IMG/VR virus record: IMGVR_UViG_2541047936_000004 | Direction: 5' to 3' (one strand) | From: a virus | Lineage: Duplodnaviria > Heunggongvirae > Uroviricota > Caudoviricetes | DNA: 21,784 bases | Notes under the pieces: generated by a model | Told to the model about the DNA's origin: nothing | The model's database searches: none | Seen by the model: the letters and a program-made list of their open reading frames with translations, nothing else | Made by a program: the position numbers and the translations under genes | In this document: positions 2,397 through 20,415 of the stretch, piece after piece | How the letters are laid out: the number at the start of each line of letters is the position of its first letter | How positions within the stretch are numbered: the stretch's first letter is position 1

Positions 2397-3518
2397 TTAG
2401 TCATCAACCGCGACTCCTGCACAATCATGGGCTATTGCCAGCAATTGTTTTTTAATTGCTTTAGCATCTACCGTCATATCTACTGTAGCAAAATGGATCT
2501 TATGTCCCTGAGTGACAACATACTCATTAAGCATATAGCCAACAGCTGGATGAAGTAGAAGACCAGCGGCATTGAGCGAAAGCGGATCCGTCTTGTTCTC
2601 CTGTGTTCTAAGGTAGGTATATAGCTGATAAATATAGCCATTACGTAGTGATTGCTCCCGATGCCAACCCTTTGTCAGAATCGAATTAAATTTGGTATCG
2701 ATAATAATACGCCGCTGGGCAGTCTTGTGTTCCAGAATAATGTCTGACTTCATTGTCGGGAAAATCTCTGCACTACCTGCACTTTGATCGCTCAACGCCC
2801 ATTTCAGCTCTTTCCCTGCAGAGACCTGCCAAGTTGTTTTGGCAAGGTGTACACGATATAAGCCAGCGATACCTTTTTCAAATAGTCTTCTCATCCAGTA
2901 AAGGTTATTTGAGGGCGCAGGTAAAAGATATTGGCCTTGATCTTCGGTCGGCATCAGCAGTTCAAAAGCTAATCGTGCGGCATCGACCATCGGTTTATCT
3001 GCGGCATCATGGCGTCCAAAACGCCACACTGAGGGTAATTCGCGGGGGGCAGGATATCCTCCATTTATCCCCTCACGGCGAAGTGATATTGCCATAAAAT
3101 GGCAATCTGCCGCCAAAGACGGTTTCACTATGATTGAGGCCAGACGTTCTAACGCACAGCGAACATAGCGATTTCGGGGGGTGTTGAGGGTTATGTCTTG
3201 AAAATGGCAGGCAACCTGTCCCCGTTCCAGCAGTTGATGACTGGCAGTATACAGTATGTCAATGCGCCCTCTCACCCGGTTCAGGGCCGCATGACAAGTT
3301 TGGTATCCCATATTTAAATTGCGACGTCGGCGCAGCGTAATCTCATGAAGGAGGATTGTCGCCACCAGGTCGGGGATTTCTGCTGGGTTATCTTCTACTG
3401 CGATCTGATTGCGCCCTAACTGGCGAAACAGATCTGAAGCGTACAGCATCAGCATCCAGATATTTCGCATGGGAATACGTGATGCTGTATGTTGCTCACT
3501 CCCGGTTATTGTCGTCAT
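2397..3518 (-). CDS. mcrC: McrC-family nuclease subunit of a McrBC-type (Type IV) restriction system
   Basis: 373-aa ORF colinear with K-12 McrC: MRNIWMLMLYAS vs VRNIYYMLTYA near the N-terminus, RIIIDTKF vs ILIVDAKYY (PD-D/ExK-type core), YIYQLYTYL vs LYQLMNYL, GLLLHPAV vs GLLIYPHV. Its ATG overlaps the mcrB stop (ATGA). Confidence 0.85.
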   Translation of the reverse strand: MTTITGSEQHTASRIPMRNIWMLMLYASDLFRQLGRNQIAVEDNPAEIPDLVATILLHEITLRRRRNLNMGYQTCHAALNRVRGRIDILYTASHQLLERGQVACHFQDITLNTPRNRYVRCALERLASIIVKPSLAADCHFMAISLRREGINGGYPAPRELPSVWRFGRHDAADKPMVDAARLAFELLMPTEDQGQYLLPAPSNNLYWMRRLFEKGIAGLYRVHLAKTTWQVSAGKELKWALSDQSAGSAEIFPTMKSDIILEHKTAQRRIIIDTKFNSILTKGWHREQSLRNGYIYQLYTYLRTQENKTDPLSLNAAGLLLHPAVGYMLNEYVVTQGHKIHFATVDMTVDAKAIKKQLLAIAHDCAGVAVDD

Positions 3519-5497
3519 TTTGCTAATAACACTTTTCTGGCTTCATCGACTTTATTTGGAGCATCGAACCAATATTCGGCGAGCAAAGGGCAGATCTCTG
3601 TATCAACGACTTGTTCATACCAAGCCTGGGCATCGTTGATTTTTTGGCCGATAGCTGGGGTGACATAGCTGTGACCGATACAAAACTGTGGTCCTAAGGT
3701 AACATCTTTTGCCAGCATATCGTTTAATACCGTCAGTCGAGATTTGATGAATGCTAACATGTCAAAATCAATTGCGTAATTATAATTTACCCAGTTTCTC
3801 CACGCGTCATTAAAAGCTGGCTTTAGATCGATAAACGCGAAACGACGGCGCAGCGCTAGGTCAAGTAGTGCGAGTGAGCGGTCTGCAATATTCATCGTAC
3901 CGATGATATATAGATTCTCAGGAATGTATATTTTTTCATCAGCATTTTTAGGATAGGAAAGAGATAATGCCTCAGTCGGCGTGCGTTTATCTGCTTCCAT
4001 CAACGTGAGTGTTTCACCGAAGATTTGCGCCGGATTGCCACGATTAATCTCTTCAATTATCACCACATATTTCGAGGTAGGATTATTGACTGCAGTTTTG
4101 ATTGCATTTACAAAAGGTCCATCAATTAGCGTCAATTGCCCTTCTTTACCTGGACGCCAGCCTCGAATAAAGTCTTCGTAAGAGAGGTTCGGGTGAAATT
4201 GCACCGCGCTAATACGCTCAGGTGCTTTTTCTCCCATCAAGCAGTACGCCAGACGTCGCGCTAACCAAGTTTTTCCAGTTCCGGGTGGTCCTTGTAATAT
4301 CAGGTTTTTCTTGTCGATCAGGCGCTGAAGTGTGAGTTGGATCTTAGCCTCTTCCAAGAAACAGCCATCCTGCACCAGATGACTGATGTCATAAGGAACG
4401 TGGGTGAGTTTTGGCAACAGCGCACTCTCTTCGACAGTTTCCTCAGTTATCGTCTGGGATTCGTTTTTCTCAAAATTCAGGTATTCATAATTTCCGGACT
4501 CGAGGGACTTTAACTCATCATCATTGCATAGTTTCTGTAGATAAAAGTAGATTGAGCTTGTAACAGTTTTGCTCTCAGGATGCTCTACCTTGAATACGTC
4601 CAAGTAGTTTTCTTCCAACTCCGAAGCAGTGAAATAAGGGCCATTTTTTTTCAGGCATAACGCCTTAATTTTATTCAGTAAAGAGGCTTTCCACGTTCTA
4701 TTTGCCACCTCATCTTTAGACTGGCTAAGATCTGTATTCCACGCTGATAAGGAAAGTTCTGGGAAAGAATGAACCGGATAGTTTGGTTGGGTAAAGACCT
4801 CGTTCAGCGCCCGCATAAGACTCAGGTAACTTTGTCCACTACAGCGACCTTTTGCCCCGTTTTTAATGATCTTAATGTTTAACACTGTCTGAATGTAATA
4901 CTGCGACTGGCTATCTAAAGTGGGGTAGAACCAAGGACGGGTCCAGTACAACCCCATGGTGAGATTCCAACCGACATTCATTACTGTAGAAGCGATGTCA
5001 TATGCGGCAGTGAAGTCTGCAGAGTTAGTATTCTGGTTATCCGCAAAGATCATTGCCTGTGAGAACATTTCCCACAAGCATTCAATGTCATTAGGGTCGC
5101 GTGACTTTTCATAACCAAAGAACCAAGATTTTTGGTTATTCAACAGAGGGATTCCGGCAAAGGAGTCAGGAATCGGTTCGTTCACGCCCAACAAATTCGC
5201 TAGCTTGGCAGCAATAATTTTGCGATTGCTGTCGGTCAAGTTACGATTGAACAAGCCCATAGTAGTAAACGGACAAATGTCTTTTAAGGGAAAGATCTCT
5301 CCCATAATAGATTTGTCCTGCAGATGGGACATTCCTTCCACACCCGAGGCAATTAGATGAATACCTTTGACTAATTCATCTCTACGATTTCGCCAAGTCA
5401 GTAACGCGTTGGCAAAAGCCTCATAAAAACTAGCCCAAGCAAACTTGCCATCATGTTCTGCTGTATCCACGGGAACTCCATTATACTTGTTGAGCAA
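3515..5497 (-). CDS. mcrB: McrB-family GTPase (AAA+) with a long N-terminal region of unknown type
   Basis: 660-aa ORF with a TTG start. Residues ~390-660 align with K-12 McrB: NLILQGPPGTGKTWLARRLAY, VQFHPNLSYEDFIRGWRP, MNIADRSLALLDLALRRRFAFIDL, IGHSY, PLLAEYWFD. The first ~385 residues do not resemble the K-12 McrB N-terminal domain as I recall it. Confidence 0.85.
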   Translation of the reverse strand: MLNKYNGVPVDTAEHDGKFAWASFYEAFANALLTWRNRRDELVKGIHLIASGVEGMSHLQDKSIMGEIFPLKDICPFTTMGLFNRNLTDSNRKIIAAKLANLLGVNEPIPDSFAGIPLLNNQKSWFFGYEKSRDPNDIECLWEMFSQAMIFADNQNTNSADFTAAYDIASTVMNVGWNLTMGLYWTRPWFYPTLDSQSQYYIQTVLNIKIIKNGAKGRCSGQSYLSLMRALNEVFTQPNYPVHSFPELSLSAWNTDLSQSKDEVANRTWKASLLNKIKALCLKKNGPYFTASELEENYLDVFKVEHPESKTVTSSIYFYLQKLCNDDELKSLESGNYEYLNFEKNESQTITEETVEESALLPKLTHVPYDISHLVQDGCFLEEAKIQLTLQRLIDKKNLILQGPPGTGKTWLARRLAYCLMGEKAPERISAVQFHPNLSYEDFIRGWRPGKEGQLTLIDGPFVNAIKTAVNNPTSKYVVIIEEINRGNPAQIFGETLTLMEADKRTPTEALSLSYPKNADEKIYIPENLYIIGTMNIADRSLALLDLALRRRFAFIDLKPAFNDAWRNWVNYNYAIDFDMLAFIKSRLTVLNDMLAKDVTLGPQFCIGHSYVTPAIGQKINDAQAWYEQVVDTEICPLLAEYWFDAPNKVDEARKVLLAK

Positions 5498-10332: not shown

Positions 10333-10880
10333 GCTTCACCTCCGCAGAGATCAAACGCTGGATGCAAAATATCGCAGGTGCATTTCTGCATCTGTGAATG
10401 GAGAAGAGAGGTTGGATTGTATGTGCGCATAAACGTCCCCGTTTAGCGCAGAAGTCACCGGAGTTGTTCAGGCCCCAATGGCATGATTATGGCTGGTTGA
10501 TTATTGGAAATCAAATGTGCTGAAAATTAGTCTGCCAAGTCTTCCTCAGTCGCAACTGGGTAATTCCAAATATCAAAAAAAGCTATAGCCTCCTGCCATT
10601 TGCTCCATAAGTTATCAAGTACTTGTGTAGGTTCCGTACTTTTAAAAACAGAATCAGCCGCATCACCGTTATGAACTTCCTCGTACAGTTCCATTATTAG
10701 CAGATTAACAAAGTACTGTTTCAACATTAATGCCTGATTACCTTCTTTCTGCTGGCTATCCTGCTTGATGATCTCCATCGCCCGTACTAGGCACCTGATG
10801 ATATCCGCTGCATCATTAACGCTCCATGAACCGCCCCGGGAATCCTGGAGACTAAACTTCCTGAGAAAGAGGTAAACAGG

Positions 10881-11207
10881 ATGACTAAAAATACTCGTTT
10901 TTCCCCCGAAGTCCGTCAACGGGCAGTCCGTATGGTTCTGGAAAGTCAGGATGAATATGACTCACAGTGGGCGGCAATTTGTTCCATTGCCCCAAAGATT
11001 GGCTGTACGCCGGAGACTCTGCGTGTCTGGGTTCGCCAGCATGAGCGGGATACCGGGGGCGGTGATGGTGGGCTCACCAGCGCTGAACGTCAGCGTCTGA
11101 AAGAGCTGGAACGTGAAAATCGTGAACTGCGCCGCAGTAACGATATCCTTCGCCAGGCTTCCGCTTATTTTGCGAAGGCGGAGTTCGACCGCCTCTGGAA
11201 AAAATGA
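10881..11207 (+). CDS. IS629 OrfA (helix-turn-helix transposase N-terminal part)
   Basis: 108-aa ORF inside the IS; ends in an A-rich slippery region overlapping the orfB start. Confidence 0.85.
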
Positions 11208-12094
11208 TGCCACTGCTGGATAAGCTGCGTGAGCAGTACGGGGTCGGACCGGTATGCAGCGAACTGCATATTGCCCCGTCAACGTATTACCATTGTCAGC
11301 AACAGCGACATCATCCGGATAAACGCAGTGCCCGTGCGCAGCACGATGACTGGCTGAAGAGAGAGATACAGCGCGTATACGATGAAAATCATCAGGTGTA
11401 CGGTGTGCGTAAAGTCTGGCGTCAGTTGTTACGGGAAGGAATCAGGGTGGCCAGATGTACAGTGGCGCGCCTCATGGCGGTTATGGGACTTGCCGGTGTT
11501 CTCCGGGGTAAAAAGGTCCGTACGACCATCAGCCGGAAAGCCGTTGCCGCAGGCGACCGCGTAAACCGTCAGTTCGTGGCAGAACGACCTGACCAGCTGT
11601 GGGTGGCTGATTTTACTTACGTCAGCACATGGCGGGGCTTCGTCTATGTGGCGTTCATCATTGATGTGTTTGCCGGATACATCGTGGGGTGGCGGGTCTC
11701 ATCGTCCATGGAAACGACATTCGTGCTGGATGCACTGGAGCAGGCGTTATGGGCCCGTCGACCGTCCGGCACGGTCCATCACAGTGATAAAGGTTCTCAG
11801 TATGTATCGCTGGCCTACACACAGCGGCTTAAGGAAGCCGGATTACTGGCATCAACAGGAAGTACAGGCGACTCGTATGACAACGCGATGGCGGAGAGCA
11901 TCAATGGTCTTTACAAAGCGGAGGTAATACACCGTAAGAGCTGGAAAAACCGTGCAGAAGTGGAACTGGCCACACTCACGTGGGTGGACTGGTATAACAA
12001 TCGACGATTGCTGGAAAGGCTGGGCCATACTCCTCCGGCAGAAGCAGAAAAAGCTTATTATGCTTCCATCGGAAACGATGATCTGGCAGCCTGA
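11204..12094 (+). CDS. IS629 OrfB (DDE transposase catalytic part)
   Basis: 296-aa ORF in the -1 frame relative to orfA with an integrase-core-like sequence (HSDKGSQY...DNAMAES); identical copy at 19058-19948 on the minus strand. Confidence 0.85.
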
Positions 12095-12523
12095 GTTCAC
12101 AGATAAAACACTCTCCAGGAAACCCGGGGCGGTTCACCATTCAGATCCGCGCTTATCTTTAGCTGATGAATTGGCTCTCTCAGCGCAAGCCTTTAAAGAC
12201 TCATAAAGGTAAACTCTATTTTGTAGCTGCAGCGCTTTTTTTGACGTGTACCAACTTGCAAGCGCCGACCCCGCTGCGGCTAATGTGCCAAACGCAGAAA
12301 TACCTGCTGCTATTGCACTTAAGTCGGCACTGTCAAAGTTCCACATCATCGTTACACCTTATATAAATACCCCTCAGTAATATCCAATAAGGTATGTGCA
12401 CAATCAATATAATTTTATCCGTATCGGCACATAGCGATTTGAACGCTACTGGTAATGGTATATTTTAGATTATATCGTCCAGTTTACAGCACCCGTATTT
12501 TATGAAATGGACTCGCATATTAC

Positions 12524-15503: not shown

Positions 15504-16201
15504 ACCCTTGCTCCTTTCAGCCCAAACTTAGCTTTGATTTCTGCGATCTTCGCCAGAGCCTGTGCACGATTTAGAGGTCTACCGCCCATGACAGGAAGTT
15601 GTTTTACTGGTTCAGGTATAGCCTCACCACGGTTAATTCGTGCGGTCATACAGGACAGTTCATCGGCAGCCTTGCGCCGTAATTCCGCGTCAGTCAACGC
15701 ATTGGCCCGCATGTTCTGATACAGGTTGGTAACCAGCCAGTAGTGCGCGTTTGATTTCCACGGATAAGACTCTGCATCCGGATACAGCCCGCGCTTCCGG
15801 CAATACTCGTAAACCATATCAACCAGCTCGCTGGCGTTTGGCAGCCCGGCGGTAACGGATGCTTCTTCCCGGCACCAGGCGACAAACTGCCCGGGTGATG
15901 GCAGGAATGGTCGATTCTGCCGACGGGCTACGCGCATTCCAGCGTTAACCTGTTCCATTGTGGTGATCCCGTTTTCCCGAAAAGCCAGCACCCACTGGCG
16001 GCGGATTTCGTTCAGTTCATTCTGGTCACGGTTAGCCAGGCTCGCCGGGAAAGTTGCCAGTAACTGGCTGAACACACCGTTGATGATCTGCGCTACCTGC
16101 TGTACCTGTGGCTTTTCGTCGTACTGTTCCGGCATGTTGTTGGCGATCCGACGCATCTGCTCACGGTCAAAGTTAACCATCTGTGCGGCGATGTTTTTCA
16201 T
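15500..16201 (-). CDS. P: Replication protein P (lambda P-like, DnaB loader)
   Basis: 233-aa ORF essentially colinear with lambda P (MKNIAAQMVNFDREQMRRIANNMPEQYDEK...AKFGLKGA), with the same length. Confidence 0.9.
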   Translation of the reverse strand: MKNIAAQMVNFDREQMRRIANNMPEQYDEKPQVQQVAQIINGVFSQLLATFPASLANRDQNELNEIRRQWVLAFRENGITTMEQVNAGMRVARRQNRPFLPSPGQFVAWCREEASVTAGLPNASELVDMVYEYCRKRGLYPDAESYPWKSNAHYWLVTNLYQNMRANALTDAELRRKAADELSCMTARINRGEAIPEPVKQLPVMGGRPLNRAQALAKIAEIKAKFGLKGARV

Positions 16202-16440
16202 AGATCCACCCCGTAAATCCAGTCAGTGTTTGTCAGGTCGAGTTTTGGTTTGCCGACTGTCACGCCAGCCTGTTGCTTGTTCCGGTTGATTTCGAGCTGG
16301 GTCCACTTGTCGCGGAGTTTGGCCGGACTCAGCACGTTACCGGACCAGAAGTTGTCCTGGCAGGCCCAGCGGAACAGTACACACATGTCGCGGTGGTTAC
16401 GTCCATCACGTTCACGCATCAGACGGATATCGTTACCGGG
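16198..16440 (-). pseudogene. O: Replication protein O, C-terminal fragment only
   Basis: The minus-strand ORF ends ...[56 protein letters not shown], which is the lambda O C-terminus. The N-terminal origin-binding part is absent; the upstream boundary is the exo junction. Confidence 0.8.
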
Positions 16441-17088
16441 ATCGACGTGAGAGCTGTCGAACAGGGGGATGATGCGTGGCACAAATTACGGCTCGGCGTC
16501 ATCACCGCTTCAGAAGTTCACAACGTGATAGCAAAGCCCCGCTCAGGAAAGAAGTGGCCTGACATGAAAATGTCCTACTTCCACACCCTGCTTGCCGAGG
16601 TTTGCACCGGTGTGGCTCCGGAAGTTAACGCTAAAGCACTGGCCTGGGGAAAACAGTACGAGAACGACGCCAGAACCCTGTTTGAGTTCACTTCCGGCGT
16701 AAATGTTATTGAATCCCCGATCATCTATCGCGACGAAAGTATGCGCACCGCCTGCTCTCCCGATGGTTTATGCAGTGACGGCAATGGCCTTGAACTGAAA
16801 TGCCCGTTTACCTCCCGGGATTTCATGAAGTTCCGGCTCGGTGGTTTCGAGGCCATAAAGTCGGCTTACATGGCCCAGGTGCAGTACAGCATGTGGGTGA
16901 CGCGAAAAGATGCCTGGTACTTTGCCAACTATGACCCGCGTATGAAGCGTGAAGGCCTGCATTATGTCGTGGTTGAGCGGGATGAAAAGTACATGGCGAA
17001 TTTTGACGAGATGGTGCCGGAGTTCATCGAAAAAATGGACGAGGCACTGGCTGAAATTGGTTTTGTATTTGGGGAGCAATGGCGATGA
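16430..17088 (+). pseudogene. exo: Lambda exonuclease (Exo/RedA), lacking its start and first ~10 codons
   Basis: [56 protein letters not shown]...[14 protein letters not shown] is colinear with lambda Exo from about residue 10 to the end. The apparent N-terminal 55 codons of the track ORF are antisense O sequence. Confidence 0.85.
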
Positions 17089-17243
17089 CGCATCCTCACG
17101 ATAATATCCGGGTAGGCGCGATCACTTTCGTCTACTCCATTACAAAGCGAGGCTGGGTATTTCCCGGCCTTTCTGTTATCAGAAATCCACTGAAAGCACA
17201 GCGGCTGGCTGAGAAGATAAATAACAAACAGGAGGATATATGA
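17085..17243 (+). CDS. Possible 52-codon small ORF translationally coupled between exo and the DGQHR gene
   Basis: Its ATG overlaps the exo stop (ATGA), its TGA overlaps the DGQHR ATG (ATGA), there are no internal stops, and GGGGAG lies 8 nt upstream. Product [52 protein letters not shown]. Below the track's length threshold. Confidence 0.3.
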
Positions 17244-18304
17244 GTCAGGTTGGTAATCATTCATTCGAATTTCCGGCATCGCAAGGTGTACAGGGTGGTA
17301 CTGTTACACTCTTCCTTACCATACCAGGAAGATCGCTGGCTCGTTTCCTCGCTTCAGATAATTACGGCCATACACTGGAACGCTCTCAGCGAGAAATTAA
17401 TCCAAATCGAGTACGAAAATTTTTAAATTATCTCACTAACGCAGACTCAAGAAATGAGCCTTTTATCATTCCCCCTCTCGTAGGTAACTGTGATTCGAAT
17501 ATAGAATTTGTACCGTTTGGCAACACAAATGTTGGTATAGCCAGAATTCCCCTCGACGCCGAAATAAAACTTTTTGATGGTCAACATCGTGCAGCTGGCA
17601 TTGAGATATTTTGCCGAAGTTCCCCATCAACGCTCATGGTTCCCATGATGCTTACAATGAATCTGCCGCTAAAAACCCGGCAGCAGTTCTTTTCGGACAT
17701 AAATAACAACGTTTCTAAGCCATCAGCGACCATCAATATGGCGTATAACGGCCGGGATGATATTGCTCAGGGAATGATATCCTTCCTGACCCAACATACT
17801 GTATTTGCCGATATAACCGATTTTGAACACAACGTAGTGCCATTAAAAAGTAATATGTGGGTGAGTTTCAAGGCACTCACTGATGCAACGTCAAAGTTCG
17901 CTAGGAACGGCAATCAACAACTTGAAATGGGATATATAGAATCTGTCTGGGAGGCATGGATTACACTAACTCAGATTGACTCAATCCGACATGGTGTACA
18001 CCACGCTACGTACAAGCGCGATTATATTCAGTTCCATGGAGTAATGATTAACGCTTTCGGTTTTGCGGTTCAACAGATGATGGTTAATCATTCCATCGCA
18101 GAAATAACTTCTATGATCGAAAAACTATGTGCAACTACCAGCTCTGCAGAAAGAGAGGATTTTTTTCTGATGGATAACTGGGCGGGGATCTGCACGAAAG
18201 CCAGCCAGGAAAAACTATCTGTTATTGCCAATGTGGCAGCGCAGAAAGCAGCAGCAAACAGACTGATACAAGCTTTTACCAAAGGAAGTCTGGAAACAAC
18301 TTAA
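17240..18304 (+). CDS. DGQHR-domain protein (DndB-like), solitary
   Basis: 354-aa ORF with a strong ribosome-binding site (CAGGAGGA-N5-ATG). It contains the exact motif FDGQHRAAGIE at residues ~112-122 and a downstream QQFFSDINNN block, consistent with the DGQHR/DndB family as I recall it. No dndACDE-like genes are nearby. Confidence 0.7.
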   Translation: MSQVGNHSFEFPASQGVQGGTVTLFLTIPGRSLARFLASDNYGHTLERSQREINPNRVRKFLNYLTNADSRNEPFIIPPLVGNCDSNIEFVPFGNTNVGIARIPLDAEIKLFDGQHRAAGIEIFCRSSPSTLMVPMMLTMNLPLKTRQQFFSDINNNVSKPSATINMAYNGRDDIAQGMISFLTQHTVFADITDFEHNVVPLKSNMWVSFKALTDATSKFARNGNQQLEMGYIESVWEAWITLTQIDSIRHGVHHATYKRDYIQFHGVMINAFGFAVQQMMVNHSIAEITSMIEKLCATTSSAEREDFFLMDNWAGICTKASQEKLSVIANVAAQKAAANRLIQAFTKGSLETT

Positions 18305-18457
18305 TGAATCAACATTGTCTCATATCAGCATGCTGTACGGCGTCTTTAAGGAACGGTGAGCATGAAAAACAAAATCATCATGGAGCTACAGGCTCCTTTT
18401 TTATTATTCGCATTCACCCTCAAGCGTATTAACCAACAATTCAGGGATTAATGAAAG

Positions 18458-18676
18458 ATGGCAGACATCATTGATTCAGCATCAGAAATTGAAGAATTAC
18501 AGCGCAACACAGCAATAAAAATGCGCCGCCTGAACCACCAGGCTATATCTGCCACTCATTGTTGTGAGTGTGGCGATCCGATAGATGAACGAAGACGCCT
18601 GGCCGTTCAGGGTTGTCGGACTTGTGCAAGTTGCCAGGAGGAGATCGAACTTAAGAACAAACAATGGGGACTGTGA
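18458..18676 (+). CDS. TraR/DksA-family C4 zinc-finger protein
   Basis: 72-aa ORF with CxxC-N17-CxxC (CCECGDPIDERRRLAVQGCRTCASC), typical of phage and plasmid TraR-like proteins. Confidence 0.65.
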   Translation: MADIIDSASEIEELQRNTAIKMRRLNHQAISATHCCECGDPIDERRRLAVQGCRTCASCQEEIELKNKQWGL

Positions 18677-18723
18677 TGGCTTCAAAGCAGCAAATTTCAA
18701 CATCGTCCAACTGAGGTGTAAAA

Positions 18724-18963
18724 ATGTTCAGAATCATTTTTCCTAACACCTGGTACGTCGACCACCACGGCACTCCCTGCAAAATCCTGCGTTCTACCCA
18801 CAACAAAGTTCACTACATCCGAAAAGGCAGAACATGTATCGCCAGCATGTTCCGCTTTAATCATGACTTTGAACCTGTGAATAAAGCTGATGCAGATCGG
18901 ATAGCAGAAGAGATCGAAACGGCAGAACACATTAAGAAGTTACGTGCCATACGCAGGAAATAG
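18724..18963 (+). CDS. Hypothetical 79-aa protein
   Basis: ORF in the same orientation as the early-left operon, ending 52 bp before IS629 copy 2; no family recognised. Confidence 0.35.
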   Translation: MFRIIFPNTWYVDHHGTPCKILRSTHNKVHYIRKGRTCIASMFRFNHDFEPVNKADADRIAEEIETAEHIKKLRAIRRK

Positions 18964-19057
18964 AAAAATTGATAAATTCAATACTGCATTACTCAGCATT
19001 AAATTTATCTCTATGTGAACCGCCCCGGGTTTCCTGGAGAGTGTTTTATCTGTGAAC

Positions 19058-19948
19058 TCAGGCTGCCAGATCATCGTTTCCGATGGAAGCATAATAAGCT
19101 TTTTCTGCTTCTGCCGGAGGAGTATGGCCCAGCCTTTCCAGCAATCGTCGATTGTTATACCAGTCCACCCACGTGAGTGTGGCCAGTTCCACTTCTGCAC
19201 GGTTTTTCCAGCTCTTACGGTGTATTACCTCCGCTTTGTAAAGACCATTGATGCTCTCCGCCATCGCGTTGTCATACGAGTCGCCTGTACTTCCTGTTGA
19301 TGCCAGTAATCCGGCTTCCTTAAGCCGCTGTGTGTAGGCCAGCGATACATACTGAGAACCTTTATCACTGTGATGGACCGTGCCGGACGGTCGACGGGCC
19401 CATAACGCCTGCTCCAGTGCATCCAGCACGAATGTCGTTTCCATGGACGATGAGACCCGCCACCCCACGATGTATCCGGCAAACACATCAATGATGAACG
19501 CCACATAGACGAAGCCCCGCCATGTGCTGACGTAAGTAAAATCAGCCACCCACAGCTGGTCAGGTCGTTCTGCCACGAACTGACGGTTTACGCGGTCGCC
19601 TGCGGCAACGGCTTTCCGGCTGATGGTCGTACGGACCTTTTTACCCCGGAGAACACCGGCAAGTCCCATAACCGCCATGAGGCGCGCCACTGTACATCTG
19701 GCCACCCTGATTCCTTCCCGTAACAACTGACGCCAGACTTTACGCACACCGTACACCTGATGATTTTCATCGTATACGCGCTGTATCTCTCTCTTCAGCC
19801 AGTCATCGTGCTGCGCACGGGCACTGCGTTTATCCGGATGATGTCGCTGTTGCTGACAATGGTAATACGTTGACGGGGCAATATGCAGTTCGCTGCATAC
19901 CGGTCCGACCCCGTACTGCTCACGCAGCTTATCCAGCAGTGGCATCAT
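19058..19948 (-). CDS. IS629 OrfB transposase (copy 2)
   Basis: Protein identical to 11204-12094. Confidence 0.85.
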
Positions 19949-20271
19949 TTTTTCCAGAGGCGGTCGAACTCCGCCTTCGCAAAATAAGCGGAAGCCTGGC
20001 GAAGGATATCGTTACTGCGGCGCAGTTCACGATTTTCACGTTCCAGCTCTTTCAGACGCTGACGTTCAGCGCTGGTGAGCCCACCATCACCGCCCCCGGT
20101 ATCCCGCTCATGCTGGCGAACCCAGACACGCAGAGTCTCCGGCGTACAGCCAATCTTTGGGGCAATGGAACAAATTGCCGCCCACTGTGAGTCATATTCA
20201 TCCTGACTTTCCAGAACCATACGGACTGCCCGTTGACGGACTTCGGGGGAAAAACGAGTATTTTTAGTCAT
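19945..20271 (-). CDS. IS629 OrfA (copy 2)
   Basis: Protein identical to 10881-11207. Confidence 0.85.
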
Positions 20272-20415
20272 CCTGTTTACCTCTTTCTCAGGAAGTTTAG
20301 TCTCCAGGATTCCCGGGGCGGTTCACTGACCAGTCAAGAGATGTACCTGCCATGAGCTTAATATCATGTCAGATATATCGGTCACAAACTCCCTCAGCAG
20401 CTAAGAGGAGGACAA

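Follow-up and report, generated by a model that had tools for sequence, protein, structure and literature searches.

In bacteriophage lambda, the short gene orf60a (lambdap39; J02459 31169-31351) lies directly after the exonuclease gene exo (31348-32028) and overlaps it by four bases. Ribosome profiling has been cited as evidence for its translation (PMC8614690, PMC6213356), its mRNA is present at about the level of N mRNA (PMC4195576), and it was listed as non-essential by CRISPRi (PMC10695390). Deletion of orf60a from lambda, and with stronger effect from the Stx phage Phi24B, increased lysogenization and host survival and delayed prophage induction; adsorption of Phi24B was lowered as well, and one-step growth was unchanged (PMC6213356). 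The authors of the deletion study regarded cis effects as possible; complementation failed because the overexpressed protein was insoluble (PMC6213356). When the exo-xis region was provided in multicopy on a plasmid, a frameshift in orf60a removed its effect on spontaneous induction (PMC4195576). The modelled fold of Orf60a, consisting of a sheet and a helix, has been likened to the DNA-binding domains of lambda Int (N-terminal), Tn916 Int, AtERF1, and CedA (PMC8614690). According to this literature, lambda Orf60a has a mild prolytic regulatory effect, possibly exerted via DNA binding.

A second described relative is gp35 of Shigella phage SfI (YP_009147481.1, "DUF1317 family protein"), whose record notes similarity to Sap12 of VT2-Sakai. 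Its gene has 52 codons and shares an ATGA overlap with a downstream gene of DNA-modification type. It is flanked by exo on the left and by TraR/DksA-like and DUF4222 genes, followed by xis and int, on the right. Upstream, SfI, an intact phage, also carries gam, bet, kil, and cIII. More generally, termination-reinitiation coupling at ATGA overlaps occurs in bacterial and phage operons, and the mosaic joints of lambdoid phages lie at gene boundaries.

The 52-codon ORF between exo and the DGQHR gene

The window, i.e., the whole stretch of 21,784 nucleotides analyzed here (IMG/VR record IMGVR_UViG_2541047936_000004), is a defective lambdoid prophage at icd. Its gene order begins with an McrBC-like pair and tail-fibre fragments, followed on the minus strand by ybcK, emrE, ren, P, and a fragment of O, and then on the plus strand by exo without its first 9 codons, orf60a, the DGQHR gene, a TraR-like gene, a DUF4222 gene, xis, and int (Table 1). 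No bet, gam, kil, cIII, N, or pL was found in the window prophage. An IS of 1,311 bp occurs on either side of the segment (10827-12137 and 19015-20325); the two copies are identical and inverted relative to each other, and both are missing from the otherwise identical NCTC9100 locus. Homology to lambda DNA begins at the first position of the truncated exo, whose product is 98% identical to residues 10 to 226 of lambda Exo (BLASTP; homology starts at residue 10), matches Pfam YqaJ, and is named "lambda exonuclease family protein" in RefSeq.

Table 1. Features at and around orf60a in the window
Feature	Position	Strand	Remarks
5'-truncated lambda exo, YqaJ-type exonuclease	16434..17088	+	Stop TGA 17086-17088
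SD-like GGGGAG inside exo	17071..17076	+	8 nt 5' of the ORF ATG; read from sequence
orf60a / DUF1317 gene	17085..17243	+	52 sense codons, stop TGA 17241-17243
Lambda tL3 homologue, Rho-independent terminator	17149..17181	+	ORF codons 22-33; terminator scan
SD AGGAGG for DGQHR	17230..17235	+	4 nt 5' of ATG 17240; read from sequence
DGQHR / DndB-like gene, 354 aa, slot cargo	17240..18304	+	Pfam, TIGR03187, PADLOC, phrog_7901
Mosaic cassette holding DGQHR	17243..18323	+	Homology gap in blastn and three-way alignment
Terminator-like hairpin	18382-18396		5' of TraR/DksA-type gene; terminator scan
TraR/DksA-type zinc-finger gene, lambda orf73 homologue	18458..18676	+	TIGR02419; RefSeq "TraR/DksA family transcriptional regulator"

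The initial annotation had pointed to an ORF of 52 codons that exactly bridges exo and the DGQHR gene with an ATGA overlap at either end, and inspection of the sequence confirmed this layout. The 3' end of exo reads GAG CAA TGG CGA TGA; within the ATGA at 17085-17088, the ORF begins with its ATG (17085-17087) and shares three bases with the exo stop codon. At the opposite end, the ATGA at 17240-17243 combines the stop codon of the ORF with the overlapping ATG of the DGQHR gene (17240-17242). The AGGAGG preceding this start is encoded within codons 49 to 51 (CAG GAG GAT, Q-E-D), and the final codons, CAG GAG GAT ATA TGA, thereby double as SD, spacer, and start of the cargo gene. The program-made listing opened the ORF in the same frame at an ATG at 17079, which would yield 54 aa. 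This upstream start was dropped on three grounds: its spacing from GGGGAG is 2 nt, versus 8 nt for the ATG at 17085; lambda and RefSeq/PGAP annotate the start equivalent to 17085; and the upstream extension is absent in divergent relatives. The GGGGAG site itself is identical in lambda and SfI.

Overlaps of this kind had been said to be hard to obtain by chance. Among ORFs of more than 6 codons in the window, this is the only one that shares 4 nt with an ORF of ≥100 aa on both its 5' and its 3' side. When its interior was shuffled with the geometry held fixed, the frame was open in 5.9% of 100,000 trials, and a naive estimate of our own for the whole layout, which adds the A before the exo TGA, the matching frame, and the A after the DGQHR ATG, came to ~1e-3. 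Whatever such estimates for the layout say, it is homology that decides whether the ORF is a gene.

The translated ORF matched the Pfam family DUF1317 (PF07026) with 107.1 bits against a cutoff of 22.3 (E = 3.8e-31), residues 1 to 49 aligning with positions 1 to 49 of the 60-position profile, and phrog_1998 with E = 6.2e-32; searches of NCBIfam and PADLOC gave no match for it. It is 88% identical to lambda Orf60a (residues 1 to 50), which like the ORF is encoded directly after exo, and 89% identical to SfI gp35. Many E. coli genomes in RefSeq carry an identical ORF, annotated as "DUF1317 family protein" (WP_000149533.1), between neighbors named "lambda exonuclease family protein" and "DGQHR domain-containing protein." Using the 159 nt alone as megablast query, homologues of ≥90% identity were found in 3,262 of 5,426 complete E. 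coli genomes (~60%), where they are routinely annotated. The ORF had initially been called unannotated, which is true only of the length-filtered track on which that statement was based: since a Pfam family, a PHROG, a RefSeq entry assigned by PGAP, and a literature of its own exist, the description does not hold beyond it. We regard the ORF, with high confidence, as orf60a (DUF1317) of a lambdoid prophage, here defective, integrated at icd. The gene is already known, having been named, annotated, and studied, and is ordinary rather than new.

Coding status and predicted fold

Related loci were taken from one-genome-per-species contigs (57 loci) and from 80 viral contigs, and dN/dS was calculated by the Nei-Gojobori method over a 47-codon core of 71 distinct sequences. 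The median dN/dS was 0.21 in the frame of orf60a, versus 0.97 and 2.0 in the two shifted frames, and fell below 0.5 in 97.6% of usable pairs. All 71 distinct sequences were open in this frame, while each other frame had stops in most of them. The comparisons proposed in the initial annotation, with related prophages and with the lambda sequence downstream of exo, thus turned out in favor of the ORF: the former carried neither frameshifts nor stops and conserved the amino acid sequence, and the latter contains orf60a with the same ATGA start overlap. Judged from these substitution patterns, the ORF is a real protein-coding gene under purifying selection. The chance that it is merely a fortuitous open frame in the exo-DGQHR spacer, or that an antisense ORF of 105 aa (16962-17279) is the true gene, appears negligible. 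The ORF is indeed short, a small fraction of shuffled interiors stayed open within the same geometry, and the antisense ORF does exist; however, the Pfam and PHROG matches are strong, the low dN/dS is confined to the frame of orf60a, and translation of the gene has been reported for lambda (PMC6213356, PMC8614690). The antisense ORF is already refuted as a gene, being interrupted by stops in 32 of the 71 relatives.

A HMMER profile search among 1.84 billion proteins yielded 107 representatives at 50% identity. Most DUF1317 matches were stand-alone proteins of 50 to 70 aa, and those with names came essentially all from Enterobacteriaceae; stray Vibrio, Bacillus, and Pseudomonas names among them are probably due to contamination. 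A few matches carried HTH-like extensions, in which a match to Sigma70_r4_2 stayed below threshold, and several of the longer ones look like frameshift or read-through artefacts. Neither distant relatives nor informative domain fusions were found by this profile search of 1.84 billion representatives. The family comprises a protein of ~50 aa confined to lambdoid prophages of Enterobacteriaceae.

An AF2 model of the ORF protein (pLDDT 88.7) exhibited strands at residues 8-10, 13-18, and 23-25 and a helix at residues 35-51, and thus agrees with the three-stranded sheet and single helix described for lambda Orf60a (PMC8614690), both being predictions. The same arrangement of a small, three-stranded antiparallel sheet packed against one helix characterizes beta-sheet DNA-binding domains such as the lambda Int N-terminal domain, Tn916 Int, the AtERF1 GCC-box domain, and CedA, and the conserved Arg, Tyr, and Trp residues of the ORF family sit on the predicted strands. 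In contrast to members of that group, the ORF protein has no detectable sequence relationship to them and no significant Foldseek match: Foldseek returned nothing below E = 4.4 in the PDB and nothing below 0.1 in BFVD, and PDB sequence-profile searches gave no hits for the ORF profile, the DGQHR protein, or the tgt-like protein of SfI. The likeness is therefore best taken as resemblance, not membership, and DNA binding by Orf60a stays a published lead. Controller (C) proteins of R-M systems also differ, since they have an HTH fold, whereas the ORF protein is predicted to consist of a sheet and one helix. C proteins moreover precede an R-M operon, whereas the genes downstream of DUF1317 are orphan modification genes, beside which no paired restriction gene was identified.

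Junctions and downstream cargo

The window was compared by local blastn with four sequences (L001, L002, L103, and L120) and by three-way DNA alignment with lambda and SfI. Both approaches revealed near-identity to the two phages from position 16434 to 17242/17243, where homology to lambda, SfI, and other phages was lost, before it returned at 18324. The slot between these points is occupied by orf63 and orf61 in lambda, by a tgt/DpdA-like gene (250-aa product; phrog_887) and small ORFs in SfI, and by the DGQHR gene in the window. Since the ATGs of lambda orf63, the SfI tgt-like gene, and the DGQHR gene fall into the same alignment column, the joint of the cassette coincides exactly with the start codon of the downstream gene. 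While orf60a forms the left flank of the slot, its right flank takes in the orf73 homologue; a terminator has been predicted between orf61 and orf73 (PMC4195576), and the terminator scan detected a hairpin in front of the corresponding gene of the window. At the exo/orf60a junction, window and lambda DNA are identical around GGGGAGCAATGGCGATGACG, and on this alignment the 5' ATGA overlap with exo is inherited from lambda.

The three loci differ in detail at the 3' junction. In lambda, whose orf60a resembles the window copy in its upstream SD, the tL3 hairpin inside the ORF, and the predicted fold, a C follows the ATG of orf63 (DUF1382), so that orf60a continues for 8 more codons (AVCTKHLLLS) to a total of 60 and overlaps orf63 by 28 nt. 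The ORFs of the window and SfI, in contrast, stop at ATGA, the next base being A. SfI shares its flanks with the window and differs in the cargo and in being intact, whereas the window prophage is defective. The cargo of the window matched Pfam DndB (E = 3.8e-46), PADLOC DndB, and TIGR03187 (188.8 bits against a cutoff of 58.85), but its score against the DndB equivalog (106.9) was well below the cutoff of 328.

To judge how general this arrangement is, we surveyed 39 species-level enterobacterial loci. A 4-nt overlap was present at the 3' junction in 35 of them, in the form of ATGA except for TTGA in two, even though 15 or more unrelated families are represented among the downstream genes. 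The upstream ORF overlapped DUF1317 at the 5' junction in 27 of 39 loci (by 4 nt in 19, 1 nt in 5, and 8 nt in 3). Core SD motifs were located within -16 to -4 of the DUF1317 start in 27 of the 39 loci and within the same distance of the downstream start in 29, and the C-terminal tails of the DUF1317 proteins (QEDI, RESV, and QEAA) track SD and spacer. The window thus resembles ATGA-coupled operons and lambdoid mosaic joints in general in its 4-nt overlaps, its SD inside the upstream ORF, and its joints at start codons. Compared to ATGA-coupled operons in general, it is set apart by one small gene being overlapped at both ends and by retention of the 3' overlap in 35 of 39 species across the many downstream families. 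The layout had initially been regarded as typical of translational coupling, and the two overlaps, the SDs inside the preceding coding sequences, and their conservation across the family fit that assessment; we infer from the sequence that exo, orf60a, and the cargo gene would be translationally coupled in an intact phage. With 4 nt, the distance from AGGAGG to the ATG of the DGQHR gene is short, which counts against coupling at that junction.

Using Pfam and PHROG, the gene directly 3' of DUF1317 was classified as DNA-modification associated in 29 of the 39 loci. DNA methyltransferases were encoded in 22 loci (C5+Dam/D12 fusions, MT-A70, Dam, D12, N6_N4, and two PHROG methyltransferase families), DGQHR/DndB-like proteins in 4, tgt/DpdA-like proteins in 2, and a PAPS-reductase-like protein in 1. 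The upstream genes vary and include exo/YqaJ, SSB, Gp157, PerC-like, and abc2-like genes as well as unknowns. No description of an association between DUF1317 and a DNA-modification slot was found in the literature retrieved.

This preponderance of modification genes, combined with variable upstream genes and, weakly, the rare DUF1317 members fused to HTH-like segments, might indicate that DUF1317 serves the DNA-modification enzymes of phages as a dedicated partner, for example a regulator, a targeting factor, or a controller-like protein. We consider this unlikely for several reasons. Identical DUF1317 sequences precede a DGQHR gene (L038), C5+Dam genes (L039 and L047), and another methyltransferase gene (L040). 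Conversely, when 80 DGQHR loci were surveyed from the other side, DUF1317 was located upstream of DGQHR in only ~13 of 39 distinct phage contexts, whereas in others DGQHR is preceded by PerC-like, HTH-repeat, or YqaJ genes; an obligate pairing of DGQHR with DUF1317 was ruled out by this survey. Lambda and Stx phages keep orf60a without a modification gene and still show phenotypes upon its deletion (PMC6213356). Finally, a positional account, in which DUF1317 is the conserved neighbor of a recombination hotspot where the recombination module ends, fits equally well. Most simply, orf60a is read as a conserved gene bordering a cassette-exchange hotspot on the left, where selection for cargo expression preserves the start-codon joint.

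The embedded tL3 terminator and expression of the operon

The terminator scan placed a homologue of lambda tL3 inside the ORF. It consists of a 9-bp GC-rich stem with a 5-nt loop (17149-17171), followed by TCTGTTATCA, and its RNA is predicted to fold with -19.3 kcal/mol (z = -4.1). In phage O276, the same position within orf60a is annotated as "tL3 Rho-independent transcription terminator." The hairpin was detected throughout the lambda-like clade, including members with only ~70% identity, and between the window and three relatives (L024, L025, and L029) the stem was nearly unchanged despite a dS of ~1.8 to 2.2, with one change improving the pairing. As a family-wide feature, tL3 was rejected: it was found only in the clade of ≥69% identity and is absent from the divergent clade.

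Since tL3 lies inside the ORF, expression past codon 30 needs readthrough. In the intact lambda phage, readthrough is supplied by N antitermination, and a closely following ribosome might contribute to it too. Neither the terminator nor the loss of the operon promoter had been noticed in the initial annotation, and both bear on coupling in this prophage. Unless antiterminated, tL3 would stop transcription before the DGQHR gene, and N is absent from the window prophage. A consensus scan of the plus strand from 15900 to 17240 revealed no sigma-70-like site. Because pL, N, gam, bet, and the 5' end of exo have been lost and no upstream promoter was predicted, expression is expected to be weak or absent, and the orf60a copy of the window, although intact, is probably poorly expressed or silent and kept by recent descent.

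The position of tL3 raises the question of whether the main role of orf60a is exerted at the RNA level, translation of the ORF serving to suppress tL3 and to bring ribosomes to the SD-ATGA start of the cargo, with the peptide being secondary. Such a role would account for a terminator within the ORF whose stem is kept where synonymous sites are otherwise saturated, and for the SD and start of the cargo gene being built into the ORF end in most loci. It is nonetheless quite improbable as the main role, since the amino acid sequence is under purifying selection, the most conserved segment of 11 residues falls outside both tL3 and SD, and the divergent clade retains the protein without a tL3-like hairpin. 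An RNA-level role would be compatible with a role of the peptide; the two are not mutually exclusive.

In an intact phage, orf60a, as a protein-coding flank of the cassette slot, would be among the genes transcribed early from pL, with N antitermination needed to pass tL3. Ribosomes ending translation of exo would reinitiate on orf60a, and those ending orf60a would reinitiate on the cargo gene; by such serial reinitiation, the products of exo, orf60a, and the cargo gene would be made in linked amounts. As a more speculative extension, which we put forward tentatively and consider possible rather than probable, the DUF1317 gene may, beyond closing the recombination module, act as a conserved docking leader for a hypervariable DNA-modification slot of enterobacterial lambdoid prophages. 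Its C-terminal codons, which contain a portable SD-ATG(A), would allow any incoming methyltransferase, DpdA-like, or DndB-like gene to be reached by reinitiating ribosomes; in the lambda clade, translation across tL3 would gate transcription into the slot; and the small protein might act on DNA together with whichever modification enzyme follows.

As originally stated, the finding is a rediscovery of lambda orf60a, and what our analysis adds is modest and contextual. A length filter is sufficient to hide a gene present in ~60% of complete E. coli genomes. What novelty remains lies in the slot for DNA-modification genes, in the tL3 embedded in the ORF, and in the conserved SD-ATGA junction at which cargo would dock; these are worth noting as parts of a possible mechanism. 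A terminator located inside a translated mini-gene that is overlapped at both ends is a neat, naturally occurring system in which to study how translation and termination influence each other. The slot after orf60a is a precise site of cassette exchange, filled mostly by DNA-modification genes; as such, it could serve to locate anti-restriction or epigenetic cargo of phages and may offer a handle on the function of Orf60a.

The cassette slot downstream of orf60a

The gene directly following the DUF1317 gene orf60a was found to occupy a precise mosaic cassette, whose left joint coincided with the start codon of this cargo gene and whose right joint lay 20 nt past its stop codon. At the slot where the window carries its DGQHR gene, lambda contains orf63 and orf61, whereas a tgt/DpdA-like gene is present in Shigella phage SfI and a PAPS-reductase-like gene in the compared locus L103. 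We surveyed the downstream neighbours of DUF1317 in genome contigs of 39 enterobacterial species (loci L021 and L024-L061). In 29/39 species, the immediately adjacent gene was associated with DNA modification (22 DNA methyltransferases, 4 DGQHR, 2 tgt/DpdA-like, and 1 PAPS-reductase-like), and an ATGA or TTGA overlap joined it to DUF1317 in 35 of the 39.

The window DGQHR protein passed the generic DGQHR domain model, and its DndB equivalog score of 106.9 bits was far below the 328-bit cutoff. Neither dndACDE nor dpdA was found near the gene, making it an orphan. It is located in a phage early operon.

Features discussed in the text (window positions unless another locus is named)
Feature	Position	Remarks
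McrC gene and AAA-ATPase (McrB-like) gene	2397-5497	Within prophage remnant, adjoining tail-fibre genes
Two IS3-family elements	10827-12137; 19015-20325	1,311 bp each; inverted orientation
IS-flanked segment	12138-19014	Contains ybcK-emrE-ren-P-exo-orf60a-DGQHR
Rearrangement joint	16198-16440	Minus-strand O-gene fragment abuts exo
Homologue of lambda intrinsic terminator tL3	17149-17181	Embedded in orf60a codons 22-33
DGQHR gene	17240-18304 (+)	
Mosaic cassette	17243-18323	Flanks 16434-17242 and 18324-18953
Longer DUF1317 entries examined	L120 3001-3348	Also proteins P0119, P0164, P0126, P0153
HTH-extended DUF1317 members	L060 2619-2912	Also proteins P0184, P0146, P0150, P0141

The DUF1317 family

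The tL3 homologue within orf60a was retained across the lambda-like clade, including where synonymous sites were saturated, and was missing from the divergent DUF1317 clade. Longer database proteins labelled DUF1317 were rejected as true domain architectures, being mostly frameshift or read-through fusions, such as the 115-aa orf60a-orf63 fusion of L120, Bet-DUF1317 chimeras, and scrambled exo-DUF1317 chimeras. A few divergent members, one of them from Serratia, carried an additional C- or N-terminal HTH-like segment of ∼45 aa, for which the sole domain match was a sub-threshold hit to Sigma70_r4_2. Similar HTH-repeat proteins were encoded upstream of DGQHR in phages without DUF1317 (L180, L184, and L211).

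Lambda-type orf60a with flanks identical to those of lambda also occurred in non-enteric genome assemblies (L006-L020, L022, and L023), including Shewanella, Bradyrhizobium, Paenibacillus, Kitasatospora, and Leeuwenhoekiella. These lambda-identical copies often lay on contigs that had low coverage and measured about 48.4-48.5 kb, which suggests contamination with, or spike-in of, lambda DNA.

The prophage remnant

The two IS3-family copies, which we take to be IS629-like, were 100% identical, and each contained ORFs of 108 and 296 aa. Neither was present in the otherwise identical NCTC9100 locus. At the rearrangement joint, exo lacked its first 9 codons, and bet, gam, kil, cIII, N, and pL were all missing. 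The P-ren-emrE-ybcK block resembles the K-12 DLP12 arrangement; despite this likeness, the element is located at icd. The McrC and McrB-like genes likely constitute a prophage-borne type IV restriction module.
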